Origin: a virus
Lineage: Duplodnaviria > Heunggongvirae > Uroviricota > Caudoviricetes
Direction: 5' to 3' (one strand)
Length of the DNA stretch: 21,894 nucleotides
Virus record (IMG/VR): IMGVR_UViG_2737471819_000029
Span: 1-21,894 of that record
The position numbers were made by a program, and so were the translations under genes. A model generated the notes under the pieces. That model was not told where the DNA came from. It searched no databases and was given only the letters and a program-made list of their open reading frames with translations. How positions within the stretch are numbered: position 1 is the first letter of the stretch; each line of letters starts with the position of its first letter. Shown in pieces: positions 12,746-20,546 of the stretch.

Positions 12746-14161
12746 ATGGCTACGTGGCAACAGGGTATTAATTCTGGTGGTTTTCTGGCTGGCATCGGTA
12801 CGCAAAATGAGAATGCGCCAAAGGCAAGCGACATTAACGCAACGCTTGGTCTGATCCGCGAAAACAATGAACTGGCTCGATCAGGTGCAAATAACGTTGG
12901 TCTGACCGCGTTACGTGGTCTGGCTGGAGTTGCTGATATTTACAATCAGGAACAGCAACAGAAAGCGATTAGTGCGTTCAATAAGGTTCACGCTGATGCA
13001 TGGGCTTCTGGTGATCCATCGGGACTATTTAAGTTTGCCCAGGAAAATCCAGCGTTTGTTGCACAGGCACAACAGGCGTTTTCCGGTCTTAATGATCAGC
13101 AACGCAACGATATGGGCGATTTAGCCATGAGGGCTAACGTCGCTCTTTCTCAGGGACCGGAAGCCTACAGTAAATTCATTACTGACAACAAGGACAGGTT
13201 AAATCGCGTGGGGGCGAATGCTGACTGGATGATTCAGACAGGTATCCAGAATCCAGAGCAGCTATCACACATGCTGACTACTATGTCTCTCGGTGCGCTT
13301 GGACCAGAAAAGGCGTTTGCTGTTCAGGACAAGATGGCTGGTCGTGAAATTGACCGAGGCAAACTTGCAGAGACAATCCGCAGCAATCAGGCTGGAGAAG
13401 CACTTCAGGCGAGAGGGCAAAACCTTTCCTATCAGTCAGCAATGACTGGACACAATATCGCAGCACAACGCTTGGCTCTGGATCAGCAAGAGTTCGGGTT
13501 TAAGATGCAGCAAGCACAGGAAAAGGCTCAGCAGTTGATTAGCGAAGCACCTAAGCTGTCAGTAAACATGGAAAAAGGCATCGAGACGGCTGTAAACAAT
13601 GCTACAGCATCATCAAACTCAGCCAATTCTATGAGTGCGCTTGCTCAACAGTTCAGAGCAGAAAAACCAACGACAGGTTTGTTCGGTAACGCACAGAACA
13701 TGTTCGCAAAACTTACCGGAAGCGATACAACATTGCGTGATTTGCGCATCCGCCAAAATGCCCTTGTTAACAGTCAGGTTCTTAAATTCCTACCTCCCGG
13801 CCCCGCAACGGATAAAGACGTTGAGATCGTTCGGCAGGGTGCACCAACTGACATGGATAACCCTGAGACGGTCGCAAGATGGCTTGATGCGATGGCAAAC
13901 CTTGAGCGACGAAACGCGCAGTTTAATGAGTTTAAAGCCGAGTGGATGAGCGCGAATGGCAATCCAGGACAATCGCGTAATGGCGGTCAGATATTGGGGT
14001 TGGATGTTAAAAAAGGTGAATCATTGGGGAGTGCCGTTAAGCGGTATATGTCAATGAATACTGACGCAGCGCCAGCACAAGATTCGACACCTTCAGGAGA
14101 ACCACGGAATCAGGTTGGATCATATACCTCAAAATCAGGCATTCAATTTACGGTGGAATGA
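12746..14161 (+). CDS. Ejection protein, P22 gp20-like (471 aa)
   Basis: Same length as P22 gp20 and correct order; start codon preceded by AAGGGG SD. Confidence 0.75.
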
Positions 14162-15999
14162 TGAAAGTAACTGCAAACGGTAAGACATTTACCTTTCCTG
14201 ATGGTACGAGCACCGAAGATATTGGCACCGCCATTGATGAGTATTTTGCTGGTCAGGCTGTTCAGCAACAAACAGTTAATCAGGCCAATAATGCACCAAC
14301 ACGGGAAGAACCATCATTAATGCAACAAGCTGGCGATTGGCTCACTGGTGGTCAAAGTGCAGGGCAAATCGCAGAACAGGCTGGTCGTGGTCTGGTAAAC
14401 ATACCATTTGACGTATTGCAGGGTGGCGCAAGTCTGATTAATGCAATCAGTCAGGGGCTTGGTGGGCCAAAAGTATTGGATGATGTCTATCGTCCAGTCG
14501 ATCGACCGACAGACACTTATGCGCAAGCTGGAGAAACAATTGGCGGGTATTTAGTTCCAGGAGTTGGAACGGCAGGAAGCATGGCTATTGGATCACTGGC
14601 AGAGGCCGCAAATCAGAAAGGCGATTTCGCACAAAATGCAGCTAAAAATGCCGGAGTTAACCTTGCCGCTCAGGGTGTTCTTTCCGCAGCAGCAAAGGGA
14701 ATAGGGCGTGGAATAACGGCTATAAAAGGTGATATTGCGCCAGAAGTGGCGAAGAAAATTGCCACATCAGAATCGATGGGCGTGACACCAATGACATCTG
14801 ATGTTATCCCGCCGAAAAATGCTTTCACTCGTGGCCTTACTCAGGATGCCGAGGGTGCTTTGCTCGGGACAGGCTCAAAGCGAGCGGAGCAATATGCAAC
14901 GCGTAGTAAACTGGTAAGCAATTATTTTGACCGTTTTGGTGAGTATAACCCTGATGATGTGGTGAAATCTCTGACCACCACGTTAAGGGGGCGGAAGGAT
15001 GCCGCTGGCGCTGTTATCAATGACGTCACCAATAAAATGGGTAATGCCGCAGTTGATACCACAAATACCATGAATGCTCTGAATACAGCGATCGCAAGAC
15101 AGGAACGGCTTGGGACGTCTGCCAATCAAAGCCTGCTTACATCCTTGCGTAACCTACGTGAAGAATTAGCAAACCCTGCAACTGATTTGGATGTTACGTT
15201 TGATCTCTTGCGTCAGCACAGAACAGCATTTAGATCTAATGTTCAGGGAGATGCTATGGTCTTCCCCAACCAGGCAAAAGCAGCTACCAATATGGTAGAG
15301 AATGCAATGTCAAAAGACCTTCGTAACGCAGTTGCTAAAAACCTCGGTGCATCAGACGCAGCAAAATACCTTAAAGCAAATTCCGATTATGCAAACGTTT
15401 ATAATAAGGTGCTTAATAAAAACATTGCTAACAAGCTCAACAAGGCAAGCAGTGAAGCCAGTCCTGAACTTATAAATACCGTTGTATTAAGCAGAAAACC
15501 ATCTGACGTGAAACGAATCTGGAGCGCACTGGATGATAAAGGGAAAGATGCTATGCGTGCAGCTTACGTCAGCAAAATAGCGGAAAAGGCCGGTGACTCT
15601 CCAGCCAAGTTCATCACTGAAGTTAATAAGCTGAAATCTCAGTCAGGCGGTGAAATTTACAACACTATTTTTTCTGGGAAGCACATGAAAGAGCTTGATT
15701 CTCTTCATGAAGTTCTACAGCAAACAGCAAGGTCAGACACCGCAAATGTAGTAACTCAGACGGGGCAATCGCAAGCCAACAGGATAAGGACGATTGGCGC
15801 AACTGCGACTCTTGGCATATCAATGGGTCTTGAGGCTGGTTTCGGTGCAATGATGCGCTTGTATGAGTCTAAAGCAGCAAGAAACATGCTTCTCCGCCTT
15901 GCAAACGTCAAGCCTGGAACTCCGGCATATGAGCGAGCGTTAAATCAGGCTGCTAACGCCGTTCGCCCTCTCCTAACTAACGAAGCTACCAGGCAGTAG
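14158..15999 (+). CDS. Ejection protein, P22 gp16-like (613 aa)
   Basis: ATGA overlap with the preceding gene; length close to P22 gp16 (609 aa); last gene of the ejection-protein block. Confidence 0.75.
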
Positions 16000-16018
16000 A
16001 AATGAACGCCAAGGAAGG

Positions 16019-16348
16019 CTATTTAATTCTCTTTTCAATGGCTGCAATTATTGCTTTTCCTGATGTTTCAGGAGATTTTGTAGCCATATAAGACGAAAAA
16101 ATCATGTCGGTCATTCTTTCATAACTTACTATTTCCCACTTAGCCAATGCATGGGACAGTTTGTAGTTGTCATCAGTTAGTGCCCTTATGGAATTTTTTA
16201 AGTGTTTATTCTCTTCTGTTAATCGCGCAATTTTTGTATCAATTTCATGTGAGCGATCTAATTCCTTAACCTGTTTCTTGAGGGCAGCTAACCCTGCATA
16301 TAGTACGCAACAGGATATCCCAAGAGCGAGTACGACTATTTCTAACAC
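16019..16348 (-). CDS. Hypothetical membrane-anchored coiled-coil protein (~110 aa; GTG start after a strong SD). The 181-aa track ORF is this gene plus a spurious 5' extension.
   Basis: On the minus strand AAGGAGG (complement of 16354-16360) lies 5 nt upstream of an in-frame GTG (16346-16348). Product begins VLEIVVLALGISCCVLYAGLAAL (one TM helix) followed by heptad-like charged sequence (KKQVKELDRSHEIDTKIARLTEENKHLKNSIRALTDDNYKL...). The upstream part of the long ORF looks like antisense of the neighbouring gene. Confidence 0.5.
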   Translation of the reverse strand: MLEIVVLALGISCCVLYAGLAALKKQVKELDRSHEIDTKIARLTEENKHLKNSIRALTDDNYKLSHALAKWEIVSYERMTDMIFSSYMATKSPETSGKAIIAAIEKRIK

Positions 16349-16378
16349 ACCAACCTCCTTAGTTTTTCGCAGGATACC

Positions 16379-16744
16379 ATGAAAAAAGTTAACATTGGAA
16401 ACGTACCAAAGATGCTCGTTCCGCTCTTTGAGAGCGGTACAATTGTGTTTTGTAGAGACTTTCCAGAATGGCAACGCCTGCATCAAAAACTTGGCGTTGA
16501 CGTGCATGACTCGGACGCCAACGGAGCGTCTCATACAATGAGTAGCGAGAATGGTGTTTTGCATGTGATAGGCGTGTTCAATGGCAAACTATCTACTATT
16601 GCCCATGAGTGCGCTCACATGGCATTCGATATCTGCTCAAGGGTAGGTGTTGATGTTGAACCAGGAAGAGCCAACGAGACTTACTGCTACTTAATGAGCA
16701 GGCTTGTTGAGTTCTGCGAGCGACATATCAAAAAGCCGGAGTGA
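16379..16744 (+). CDS. Hypothetical small HExxH-motif protein (121 aa), candidate zinc metallopeptidase-like protein
   Basis: Protein-like composition; contains IAHECAHMAFD (H-E-x-x-H); divergent from the membrane protein gene with only ~30 bp between start codons; weak SD (GGA). Confidence 0.5.
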   Translation: MKKVNIGNVPKMLVPLFESGTIVFCRDFPEWQRLHQKLGVDVHDSDANGASHTMSSENGVLHVIGVFNGKLSTIAHECAHMAFDICSRVGVDVEPGRANETYCYLMSRLVEFCERHIKKPE

Positions 16745-16751
16745 CCCGGCT
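16735..16751 (-). terminator. Putative intrinsic terminator for the small minus-strand gene (hairpin overlaps the 3' end of the HExxH gene)
   Basis: AGCCGG / CCGGCT 6-bp stem with 6-nt loop; on the minus strand it is followed by TTTTTGATA. Lies immediately downstream of the minus-strand stop at 16758. Confidence 0.45.
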
Positions 16752-16757
16752 TGATTA

Positions 16758-16937
16758 TTACTTTTTGCTGTCTGGAGTTCGCTTATCTAATACCCAGCCA
16801 TGACCTGGCTTTGTTGTTGGCGGAAGCCTTTCGTTGTCCTTGACGGTGGCAAAATTGTCTTTCTTACCGCCGCGCGGGCCAACTTCTTGGTATATTCCGC
16901 CGTTTTTTCCTGTGTTTTCACCTGGTTTTTTCGCCAT
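16758..16937 (-). CDS. Hypothetical small Lys/Gly-rich hydrophilic protein (59 aa from the second ATG)
   Basis: GAGG 7 nt upstream of the second in-frame ATG (MAKKPGENTGKNGGIYQEVGPRGGKK...); terminator hairpin immediately downstream; candidate -35 TTGACT (complement of 16997-17002) upstream. Confidence 0.45.
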   Translation of the reverse strand: MAKKPGENTGKNGGIYQEVGPRGGKKDNFATVKDNERLPPTTKPGHGWVLDKRTPDSKK

Positions 16938-17097
16938 GATATACCTCAACATACACCCGTTATTGGGCGATTAAATATTGATCTCATTTTATAAGTAGTC
17001 AATATGGCCCAGGTAAATGAAAAAATTAACCAATCGTCATCTGGGGTATCCGTAAAAACCCTTCAGTACATAACTACTGACAGATAACCAACGCAAA

Positions 17098-17267: not shown

Positions 17268-17762
17268 TTATCTAAAACAAGCAAACTCGCCATGATATTT
17301 TTCCCTGAATGCAATAGACATTAATTCTGCCAGCTCAATATCATCGGTATACCCAAGGAAAATAGACTTACCTTTTAGTTTGAACATAACTTTATATGTG
17401 TTTTTCCCTTTAAGAAGATGAACTCCTTTTATACCTGTATTGGATGATGAAACGCTGTTGGTTTTATTCTGACCTCTGGTTACTTCTCTTAGGTTTGAAA
17501 TTCTATTGTCATTTTTAACCCCGTTAATATGGTCAATTAACCCTTTAGGCCAGCATCCTTTCATATAAAACCAAGCAAGTCGGTGGCAAAGATACGATTT
17601 TCCATTAATCCGTATTGATAAGTAGTCGGCCTGTGAGTTCGTCTTAAATCCAGCAACCTTTCCGATACTGGAGCTACCAGAAGCTATCTTCCAAGTGAAG
17701 ACGCCTGTTTCTGGGTTGTAGTTGAGTGAAGAGGTTAATTCTTTATGAGTAATCATATTCAT
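17268..17762 (-). CDS. HNH endonuclease with C-terminal AP2-like DNA-binding domain (homing-endonuclease-like), 164 aa
   Basis: Motif LCHRLAWFYMKG...IDHINGVKNDNRISNLREVTRGQN (HNH_3-type H-N-N core) followed by GIKGVHLLKGKNTYKVMFKLKGKSIFLGYTDDIELAELMSIAFREKYHGEFA (AP2-like); AT-rich codon usage; start may be the second ATG at 17756. Confidence 0.8.
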   Translation of the reverse strand: MNMITHKELTSSLNYNPETGVFTWKIASGSSSIGKVAGFKTNSQADYLSIRINGKSYLCHRLAWFYMKGCWPKGLIDHINGVKNDNRISNLREVTRGQNKTNSVSSSNTGIKGVHLLKGKNTYKVMFKLKGKSIFLGYTDDIELAELMSIAFREKYHGEFACFR

Positions 17763-19477: not shown

Positions 19478-20546
19478 TTATACTGTAACTAAATTGTCTT
19501 CATTTCTATTGGTTTTTCTTTTTAATTTAAGAAAATGTATTTCAAAAAGATAGTATGATGCAATTGATACTATATATGCGATAGCAAACCCACATGCTAT
19601 TATCACAGCATTATTGTTTACCCCAAACAAGGAGGACATTTTGTTTGCAATTGAAAAACACAGCAAATGCCACATATACAAACCATAACTTATCTTTCCT
19701 GTAAATGTTAATGGCTTTAATGATAATGCTTTTGTTATTATTTGTTTTTTCCCTAGCACACTCCACTTGTAAATGAAAAAAATTGCAGATGAAAAAATCA
19801 TCCCAAACGCTGTAAACATATACCAGCATTTCCCAGCCCAATCTACAGGGTTCCAAAAAGCATTAAGACCAACAGAATTTATTCCATTAAGAACCAGCCC
19901 AACACCTGCTATAAAAGTTAAAAATCCTGATTCATATGCGTACTTCTCATCTTTTATCTTGGAAAACAGAGCGCCAAGAACTAACATGTCAATGCAACTG
20001 ATAAGAGTTACATTTACAATGTATGGGTTTCCATCAGTGATTTGAAATATAAAATATCTTGATATACTTGATGTTATTATTAGTATAATAAAAATCAGAT
20101 TCATATTCTTTTTGTTTATGAAAAATATGAATAGAGGCCAAAGCCAGTAAAATTGTTCTTCCACTGCAAGAGACCAAGTGTGCCCCAAAATTCCAGGTGT
20201 TGTAACATTTATTCCTATATAATAGTTATTGTAGATAAGTTATAAACCACAAATAACCATCCGTTGGTTTCCCAGTTGCAATTAGAAGAATAAAGTTAAC
20301 AAGTAGGTAAGCATAAAATAACGGGAATATTCTAAGAGATCTATTTATAAGAAATCGTTTAATATAGTTACTAAAACCAGAGTCTTTATCCTCGATAAGG
20401 ATTGAGGTAATTAAGAAACCAGATAAGCAAAAGAACAGCGGAACTCCAGACCAACCAAGAGAAAATCCTGAAACTTTGGCATGAAAAAGCATTACAATGA
20501 GCACCGCAATACCTCTCACACCATCTAAAGATTGTATATGTTTCAT
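19478..20546 (-). pseudogene. O-antigen acyltransferase (Acyl_transf_3 / Oac-like) interrupted by a single-base frameshift; two ORFs of 106 aa (20226-20546) and 236 aa (19478-20188, really open up to 20239)
   Basis: N-terminal ORF begins MKHIQSLDGVRGIAVLIVMLFHA...GVPLFFCLSGFLITS (typical family-3 acyltransferase start); second ORF contains WSLAVEEQFYWLWP (family signature). On the minus strand the frames read ...WFITYLQ-TAA and TAA-LIYNNYYIGINVTTPGILGHTWSLAVEEQFY; removing one base near + coordinate 20228 joins them into one ~350-aa ORF. Confidence 0.65.

Follow-up and report, generated by a model that had tools for sequence, protein, structure and literature searches.

Small membrane-anchored proteins that keep incoming DNA from crossing the cytoplasmic membrane are known from several phages, among them HK97 gp15, T4 Imm and lactococcal Sie2009. 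They are expressed from the prophage or early in infection, and their genes are independent insertions in or near structural operons. SieA of phage P22, an inner-membrane blocker of DNA injection, is encoded directly after gene 16 and antisense to the late operon. Its gene is present in just 22 of 66 P22-like phages (PMC10883804), which left open what the others carry instead. A 2008 paper (PMC2629481) already noted how variable this 'ant moron' region is, and the sieA site has been cited as a recognised immunity hotspot (PMC11364771). The gene considered here occupies the same slot in a stretch of 21,894 nucleotides (nt) from a tailed-phage record (IMG/VR IMGVR_UViG_2737471819_000029, positions 1 to 21,894; hereafter the window). 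Homology of its genes identifies the window as a late region from a P22-like phage or prophage. The gene lies on the minus strand at 16019..16348, with ejection gene 16 on one side and the tailspike gene on the other, and encodes a bitopic membrane leucine-zipper protein of 109 residues that belongs to phrog_8100.

Gene model

Two samples were used for comparison: 39 IMG/VR viral loci that carry the 109-codon gene, and 80 loci found through hkcC, the divergent neighbour (L048-L127, hkcC-bearing IMG/VR contigs), from which the open reading frame (ORF) after the conserved leader was extracted. The first-pass annotation of the window had argued that a minus-strand ORF of 181 codons (16019-16564, with its ATG at 16564) is probably wrong, and that a Shine-Dalgarno sequence AAGGAGG with a GTG 5 nt downstream, in frame inside this ORF, gives a product of about 110 residues. 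The proposal is accurate to the base. The Shine-Dalgarno sequence lies at 16354..16360 (minus strand) and is followed by the spacer TTGGT and a GTG at 16346..16348, and translation from this codon to a TAG stop gives 109 residues. The separation of about 30 base pairs (bp) proposed for the divergent starts also agrees with the count, as 30 nt (16349-16378) lie between the GTG and the ATG at 16379 of hkcC, which encodes a 121-residue protein with a HECAH motif.

The arrangement AAGGAGG-N5-GTG is invariant in 39/39 related loci, and the Shine-Dalgarno sequence is kept in nearly all copies of the leader. Full-length homologues, including relatives of 50-65% identity, begin at the same residue as the GTG product. 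The phrog_8100 profile has 109 positions and aligns to residues 73-181 of the longer ORF; the GTG product matches over its full length, with residues 2-109 aligned to profile positions 2-109 (E=1.4e-69). NCBI PGAP annotates an identical coding sequence of 330 nt in E. coli as a 109-residue hypothetical protein (WP_000890120.1). In a megablast search against phage genomes P22 and HK620 matched at 98-99% identity solely from window position 16340-16345 onwards, and an alignment of the window with P22, HK620 and SE1 is near-identical up to CAC, the complement of the GTG, and unrelated past it. The annotated starts of P22 sieA and of HK620 hkcB, also a gene for 109 residues, are the same codon as the window GTG. 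This homology break and these starts define the GTG as the left junction of an exchangeable cassette.

A start at the ATG at 16564 would be in keeping with the uninterrupted ORF and with the finding that the upstream extension is open in 18 of the 39 related loci. However, no Shine-Dalgarno sequence precedes that ATG, and in the other 21 loci the in-frame extension meets a stop within 12-26 codons and has no ATG. Where the extension is open in a different context its sequence is unrelated. These 72 codons (16349..16564, minus strand) are the antisense strand of hkcC, a conserved and real gene, and are poorly conserved elsewhere, being closed by stops, absent or replaced by unrelated sequence; the 181-codon ORF is therefore regarded as over-extended. 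When P22 sieA was cloned with 85 bp of upstream DNA, and hence without the distant ATG, the construct was fully active and gave at least 10^7-fold exclusion (PMC10883804); these 85 bp are about 98% identical in the window. The 181-residue product is barely credible, and the GTG at 16348 is almost certainly the true start. The correction also bears on other gene models: the gene is over-extended in naive ORF calls and unannotated in the records of Salmonella phages SE1 (L002, NC_011802, 38479-38805) and ST160, where it is present at 82.6% protein identity.

Cassette exchange in the sieA slot

Gene 16 (14158..15999, plus strand), which encodes an ejection or DNA-transfer protein and whose homologues are called Phage_P22_gp16, is convergent with the 109-codon gene and separated from it by 19 nt. 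The gene is convergent with gene 16 of a P22-like element in 39/39 viral loci, and this also applies to relatives of 50% identity in a Klebsiella quasipneumoniae prophage and on a metagenomic contig. We consider it very likely that the gene is cargo of the sieA slot.

In the 80 loci found through hkcC, 12 mutually unrelated ORF families, counted as unrelated at BLASTP E>1e-3, stand behind the same leader, Shine-Dalgarno sequence and GTG. Eleven of them start at this GTG; the twelfth is a lipoprotein with its junction inside the Shine-Dalgarno sequence. An N-terminal transmembrane (TM) helix, signal peptide or lipobox was found in 11 of the 12 families, and apart from a YobH-like match none of the cargos belongs to a Pfam or NCBIfam family. 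The families are SieA, the 109-residue protein, HkcB, a 129-residue secreted protein, membrane proteins of 62, 75 and 106 residues, a 68-residue YobH-like protein, a 99-residue secreted protein, a 149-residue protein with an N-in anchor, a 140-residue soluble protein and a 161-residue lipoprotein. SieA is the sole characterised member. Variable content at a fixed position among syntenic phages, the mark of a moron, is seen here as 12 alternative cargos at one junction. As a phage moron the gene itself is ordinary; the slot, in which the same expression signals serve a dozen unrelated small envelope proteins, the 109-residue protein included, is a testable catalogue and its cargo set a shortlist of candidate new exclusion proteins.

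As far as could be found, the addition to the earlier descriptions of this region is an exchange that is exact to the ORF. On the right-hand side, the stop codon is directly followed by the motif CCTTCCTTGG (16009..16018, minus strand), which is the single occurrence in the window of the consensus CC[ATG]TCCnTGG. This consensus stands 0-6 nt past the stop in seven of the 12 cargo families (loci L050, L052, L061, L071, L102, L104 and L124); its background is 0.07 per kb, and most background matches are the same sites. With the GTG junction on the left and this motif on the right, the cassettes look swapped from start codon to stop codon. After the YobH-like and the 99-residue cargos (L050 and L104) there is a second tiny ORF with its own Shine-Dalgarno sequence, GGGAGG, which encodes a hydrophobic peptide of about 22 residues (MVTVGWII...), so some cassettes hold two genes.

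The universal part of the socket into which these cassettes fit is the leader with its Shine-Dalgarno sequence. In E. coli, 793 genomes carry the socket. This socket core, CATGGTATCCTGCGAAAAACTAAGGAGGTTGGT (16349..16381, minus strand), is common to all cargo types and conserved across 21 different far-upstream contexts, in which the sole conserved upstream block reads CATGGTATCCTGCnnAAAACTAAGGAGGTTGGy. Parts of the core survive in L004 and L007, relatives of the Klebsiella type, and in front of the E. coli HS type-B sieA. Two positions between TATCCT and AAAAC (16367-16368, minus strand) vary freely, as GA, AC, TC, GC, GT or TA, within a block of 35 nt that is otherwise invariant in dozens of loci, and may lie at the transcription start or in the discriminator region. 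A candidate extended -10 element, TGGTATCCT (16371..16379, minus strand), overlaps the Shine-Dalgarno sequence and ATG of hkcC on the other strand. Its pattern TGnTAnnnT persists in changed upstream contexts (TGcTATCCT, cTGgTATCCT, TGaTAGAGT and TGgTAAAGT), and the form TGnTATCCT is found in 58 of 59 unique socket sequences. The stretch 16379..16409 (minus strand), inside hkcC codons 1-10, is homologous to the putative PsieA of P22-pbi (AF527608, feature 13861-13891) and contains the site TTGGTA...TTTTTC.

A different upstream region is seen in the E. coli HS prophage HS1 (L129, 26102-26207), where the type-B sieA has a diverged leader, CTGCTCAAAACTAAGGAG, a different junction and an ATG start, and a promoter-like site TTGATA-N17-CATTAT is located directly upstream of the leader. 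This context also precedes the 109-codon gene in L023 and L026. The HS type-B sieA is functional with 106 bp of upstream DNA (PMC10883804).

The neighbour hkcC (16379..16744, plus strand, 121 codons) has the orientation of the late operon and homologues down to 43% identity in several genera, including Rosenbergiella and Klebsiella. Its HECAH motif is invariant (H76, E77 and H80), as is E100 in NETYC, and several cysteines are conserved. The AlphaFold model, with a predicted local distance difference test score (pLDDT) of 83.5, gave no significant structural match, and the protein has no Pfam family. It may be an undescribed minimal zincin, the motifs being the only indication of a peptidase. 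hkcC adjoins the 109-codon gene in 9 of the 39 loci and is absent from the other 30 and from the Klebsiella-type relatives; elsewhere a lipoprotein-like gene takes its place, or the tailspike gene comes next after 240 bp. Conversely, a nearly identical hkcC flanks all 12 cargo types. The tight regulation that the first-pass annotation inferred for the two genes, taken as specific to this pair, does not agree with this low co-occurrence and with 12 unrelated cargos beside hkcC, which leave a specific pairing unsupported. Its related claim, that the two promoters are embedded in each other's coding sequence, stands in one direction, since the putative PsieA of P22 maps to hkcC codons 1-10, and is doubtful in the other: a conserved promoter for hkcC is unlikely because this gene runs with the late operon and has swappable cargo as its upstream sequence. 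Given this direction and the solely variable cargo upstream, hkcC is probably read from the late transcript, antisense to the cargo. Any mutual exclusion would be a general one, between cargo transcription in the prophage state and antisense read-through of the late operon.

Protein architecture and proposed function

A single N-terminal TM helix and a coiled coil had both been proposed for the product, and both were recovered. The helix comprises residues 2-23 (16280..16345, minus strand), for which the Kyte-Doolittle mean over 19 residues is 2.43 against a usual threshold of 1.6, and it is also helical in the AlphaFold model. The codons for residues 26-71 (16136..16273, minus strand) encode a leucine zipper, a heptad repeat with I36, L43, L50, L57, L64 and W71 at the d positions and I40, N47, I54, N61 and L68 at the a positions. 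A zipper pattern with two Asn residues (N47 and N61) at a positions favours parallel dimers, and the stalk of about 45 residues probably dimerises. AlphaFold predicts a continuous helix from residue 2 to 90, a loop and a second helix from 97 to 108, with a mean pLDDT of 84.8. The core heptad residues are invariant or near-invariant across the family, and surface positions vary. The C-terminal head, residues 70-109 (16022..16141, minus strand; KWEIVSYERMTDMIFSSYMATKSPETSGKAIIAAIEKRIK), is almost invariant down to the relatives of 50% identity. Compared with the alleles of 83% identity the C-terminal region shows one non-synonymous and two synonymous differences, and the zipper 11 and three, respectively, which are small counts. 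Judged from these sequences, the head of the family is under purifying selection.

In no family member is there a Lys or Arg before the TM helix, and the anchor is followed by KK or RK. Position 2 or 3 is acidic in most full-length members, P0017 being an exception. The first TM helix of P22 SieA shows the same charge arrangement as the 109-residue protein. From this charge distribution the positive-inside rule predicts an N-out/C-in topology with the zipper and the head in the cytoplasm, and the earlier description of the charged heptad region as an ectodomain is therefore doubtful. The sequence GISC in the anchor was considered as a lipoprotein signal and rejected, because it lacks a basic n-region and a canonical lipobox and relatives do not conserve the Cys.

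A sequence search of solved structures returned only zipper-type matches to GCN4, Fos and Jun (E>=0.016, about 0.02), which reflect heptad composition and not homology. Pfam, NCBIfam and PADLOC gave sub-threshold coiled-coil noise alone (DivIC, ZapB, bZIP and LmuB). There was no significant similarity to gp7, gp20, gp16 or other window proteins that would indicate mimicry of the phage's own proteins; a match to gp16 residues 508-546 had E=0.05 in a database of 20 proteins without composition correction, which is chance level.

The family is narrow and uncharacterised, and its members are already annotated as a 109-residue hypothetical protein. It comprises 14 clusters among 5.8 billion proteins. 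When the family profile was run exhaustively with HMMER against 1.84 billion representatives, eight matches reached E<=1e-3, of which five are true relatives and the others coiled-coil proteins. The gene is found in 13 sequenced Salmonella phages. A scan of species-representative genomes gave no confirmed relative, as expected for a strain-specific prophage gene.

The P22 sieA slot that the gene occupies makes superinfection exclusion or abortive infection the best fit among the functions offered in the first-pass annotation. Established here are the gene model, the protein architecture, the slot, the cassette exchange and a narrow family with its head under purifying selection. Building on them by analogy with SieA, we give an even chance to the reading that the 109-residue product is a prophage-expressed exclusion or defence protein of the inner membrane, carried as sieA-slot cargo; that it blocks phage entry has a slightly less than even chance. 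In such a scheme the gene would be transcribed in the prophage state from a promoter within about 85 bp upstream. The protein would insert in the inner membrane with its N terminus outside and its C terminus inside, held by a 22-residue anchor and carrying a stalk of some 45 residues, presumably dimeric, and a head of 40 residues. The lysogen would be protected at the envelope against incoming P22-like phages, most likely through disturbed DNA delivery via the gp20/gp16 conduit, as with SieA. During lytic growth, read-through of the late operon would run antisense across the gene. If entry is indeed blocked, this would be achieved by an architecture far from that of SieA, and the comparison would help to tell which feature of the gp16/gp20 conduit is open to attack.

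A wider and clearly unlikely version is that the sieA slot is a plug-and-play socket in which whole ORFs for envelope-targeted anti-phage proteins are swapped between the leader/Shine-Dalgarno/GTG unit and CCWTCCnTGG. If true, the 109-residue protein would represent a new class of exclusion protein, a dimeric inner-membrane zipper with a conserved cytoplasmic head that blocks either the exit of the gp16 DNA conduit or a host factor needed by it, and the ten other orphan cargo families would supply a ready list of new exclusion mechanisms.

Several observations weigh against an exclusion function. Position is the sole ground for the functional inference, and morons at the sieA site are thought to be functionally non-identical (PMC2629481). 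Homology to SieA was not detected by BLASTP (E=0.32 over 76 residues of the TM/basic region), HkcB and the 109-residue protein are unrelated (no BLASTP alignment, hhalign probability 1%), and the protein has no homology to any Pfam, NCBIfam or PADLOC family. The predicted topology has the positive-inside rule as its sole basis. The family is rare, with five representatives at E<=1e-10 among 1.84 billion and a presence in 17 of 5,426 complete E. coli genomes. The overall ratio of non-synonymous to synonymous substitution rates against the 83%-identity group is high, 0.6-0.8, again from small counts. As to expression, a consensus scan found no strong sigma-70 promoter at 16379..16409 or upstream of the gene, and the extended -10 element, which is degenerate (CGGTGTTCT) and not kept upstream of the functional HS1 sieA, was for that reason downgraded to a candidate.

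Other functions have to be considered. A prophage-expressed envelope protein in the same slot could instead be an abortive-infection membrane effector, which when triggered would collapse the membrane, or a lysogenic-conversion factor unrelated to entry. Slot, orientation and membrane anchor suit such a role equally well, a sensor or adaptor could well be built as a cytoplasmic zipper with a conserved head, and the great diversity of the cargos, including secreted proteins and lipoproteins that are not bound to block injection, together with the functional non-identity of morons (PMC2629481), points the same way. However, PADLOC gave no match to a known abortive-infection or defence model, no partner gene travels with the 109-codon gene in the 39 loci, and one TM helix with no evident pore-forming features makes a weak toxin candidate. 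We regard this alternative as rather unlikely but to be taken seriously. Quite improbable is that cargo and hkcC form a pair of defence and counter-defence genes, a 'non-contiguous operon' like tai/ati of phi80, with the antisense gene defending the lysogen and the HExxH protein, in late orientation, neutralising the defence during the phage's own lytic growth. The geometry is that described in PMC11364771, as hkcC adjoins the antisense cargo in late orientation with 30 nt between the starts, and hkcC itself, with its invariant HExxH motif, is conserved and real. Its absence from 30 of 39 cargo loci and from the Klebsiella-type relatives tells against a pair, the presence of a near-identical hkcC beside 12 unrelated cargos argues against specific recognition, and P22 sieA works without the hkcC coding body.

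The arrangement of TM helix, leucine zipper and short conserved tail is also that of the divisome proteins FtsB, FtsL and DivIC, and a mimic of these could modulate host cell division. The Pfam DivIC profile matches weakly with TM helix and zipper in register (E=0.0095), and there is a weak ZapB match, but the DivIC score is 16.2 bits against a gathering threshold of 28.9 and such coiled-coil matches are compositional, GCN4, Fos and Jun scoring the same. The predicted topology is opposite to that of FtsB, and a constitutive, prophage-expressed division inhibitor would be costly, which makes this role very improbable. A spanin or other lysis protein, which the first-pass annotation had named for the architecture, is effectively refuted. 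A TM helix followed by a coiled coil does resemble an i-spanin, and in a 20-protein set the family profile gave its least poor score to the window's Rz (E=0.036), which is non-significant. Yet the window has its own holin, endolysin and Rz-like spanin at 1-1248, and the gene lies 15 kb from this lysis cassette, antisense to the late operon and in the prophage-expressed sieA slot. No lipoprotein ORF is present within or next to 16019-16348 in the window ORF list, and the protein matched no spanin family of PHROG, Pfam or NCBIfam.

Neighbouring genes and comparison with known systems

The gene order of the window is holin, endolysin and Rz spanin, followed by terminase, portal, coat, ejection genes 7, 20 and 16, and a tailspike that carries the P22 head-binding domain. 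At the end of hkcC a hairpin (16733..16752, no strand assigned), found by scanning, is the equivalent of a terminator annotated as bidirectional in HK620 and P22 (t mnt). It separates hkcC from an orf59a/HkcD-like ORF of 64 codons (16758-16952, minus strand; phrog_3202) with a YjzC-like Pfam match below threshold. Between this ORF and the tailspike gene lies an HNH gene (17268-17762, minus strand; HNH_3, homing-endonuclease-like), in the place taken by mnt-arc-ant in P22; the window phage lacks the immI region. In L024 an HNH gene of 41% identity is found at a similar place. Downstream of the tailspike gene, two adjoining minus-strand ORFs (19478-20188 and 20226-20546) correspond to the C-terminal and N-terminal parts of the same O-antigen acetyltransferase families (phrog_3333 and phrog_6705), which suggests a split or frameshifted lysogenic-conversion gene.

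Compared with HK97 gp15, T4 Imm and Sie2009 the likeness of the 109-residue protein is by class alone, and we know of no description of a coiled-coil stalk in these three. In FtsB, FtsL and DivIC (PF04977) an N-terminal TM helix also leads straight into a zipper with a short conserved tail, but the 109-residue protein stays below the Pfam threshold, has the opposite predicted orientation and is found in a phage-moron context. Tai/Ati of phi80-like phages (PMC11364771) shares with the present locus a defence gene that is antisense in the late operon, with a gene in late orientation alongside. Tai, however, is a protein of about 26 kDa that acts on tail assembly (PMC11364771), and here hkcC does not co-vary with the cargo.

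HkcB of HK620 (phrog_5962) has the slot, the start codon and the length of 109 residues in common with the protein, as well as M-[LF]-E, a hydrophobic N-terminal segment and a long heptad-rich helix. Its anchor is both shorter and less hydrophobic (maximum 1.43), and the C-terminal regions differ. In P22 SieA (type A of the three SieA types A-C, PMC10883804) the slot, leader, Shine-Dalgarno sequence and GTG are those of the 109-codon gene, whereas the proteins differ in their build. SieA has three to four TM helices, the same hydropathy calculation giving at least three regions for P22 SieA, compared with one in the 109-residue protein. The SieA motif FxRYPxEAxxFNK, conserved and cytoplasmic and located close to the C terminus (PMC10883804), is present in P22 SieA and HS1 SieA and absent from the 109-residue protein, which instead has a leucine zipper and a different C-terminal head. 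What the two have in common, besides the expression signals, is an N terminus free of Lys and Arg, a TM helix and a basic cluster after it, and both are restricted to P22-like prophages of Enterobacteriaceae.

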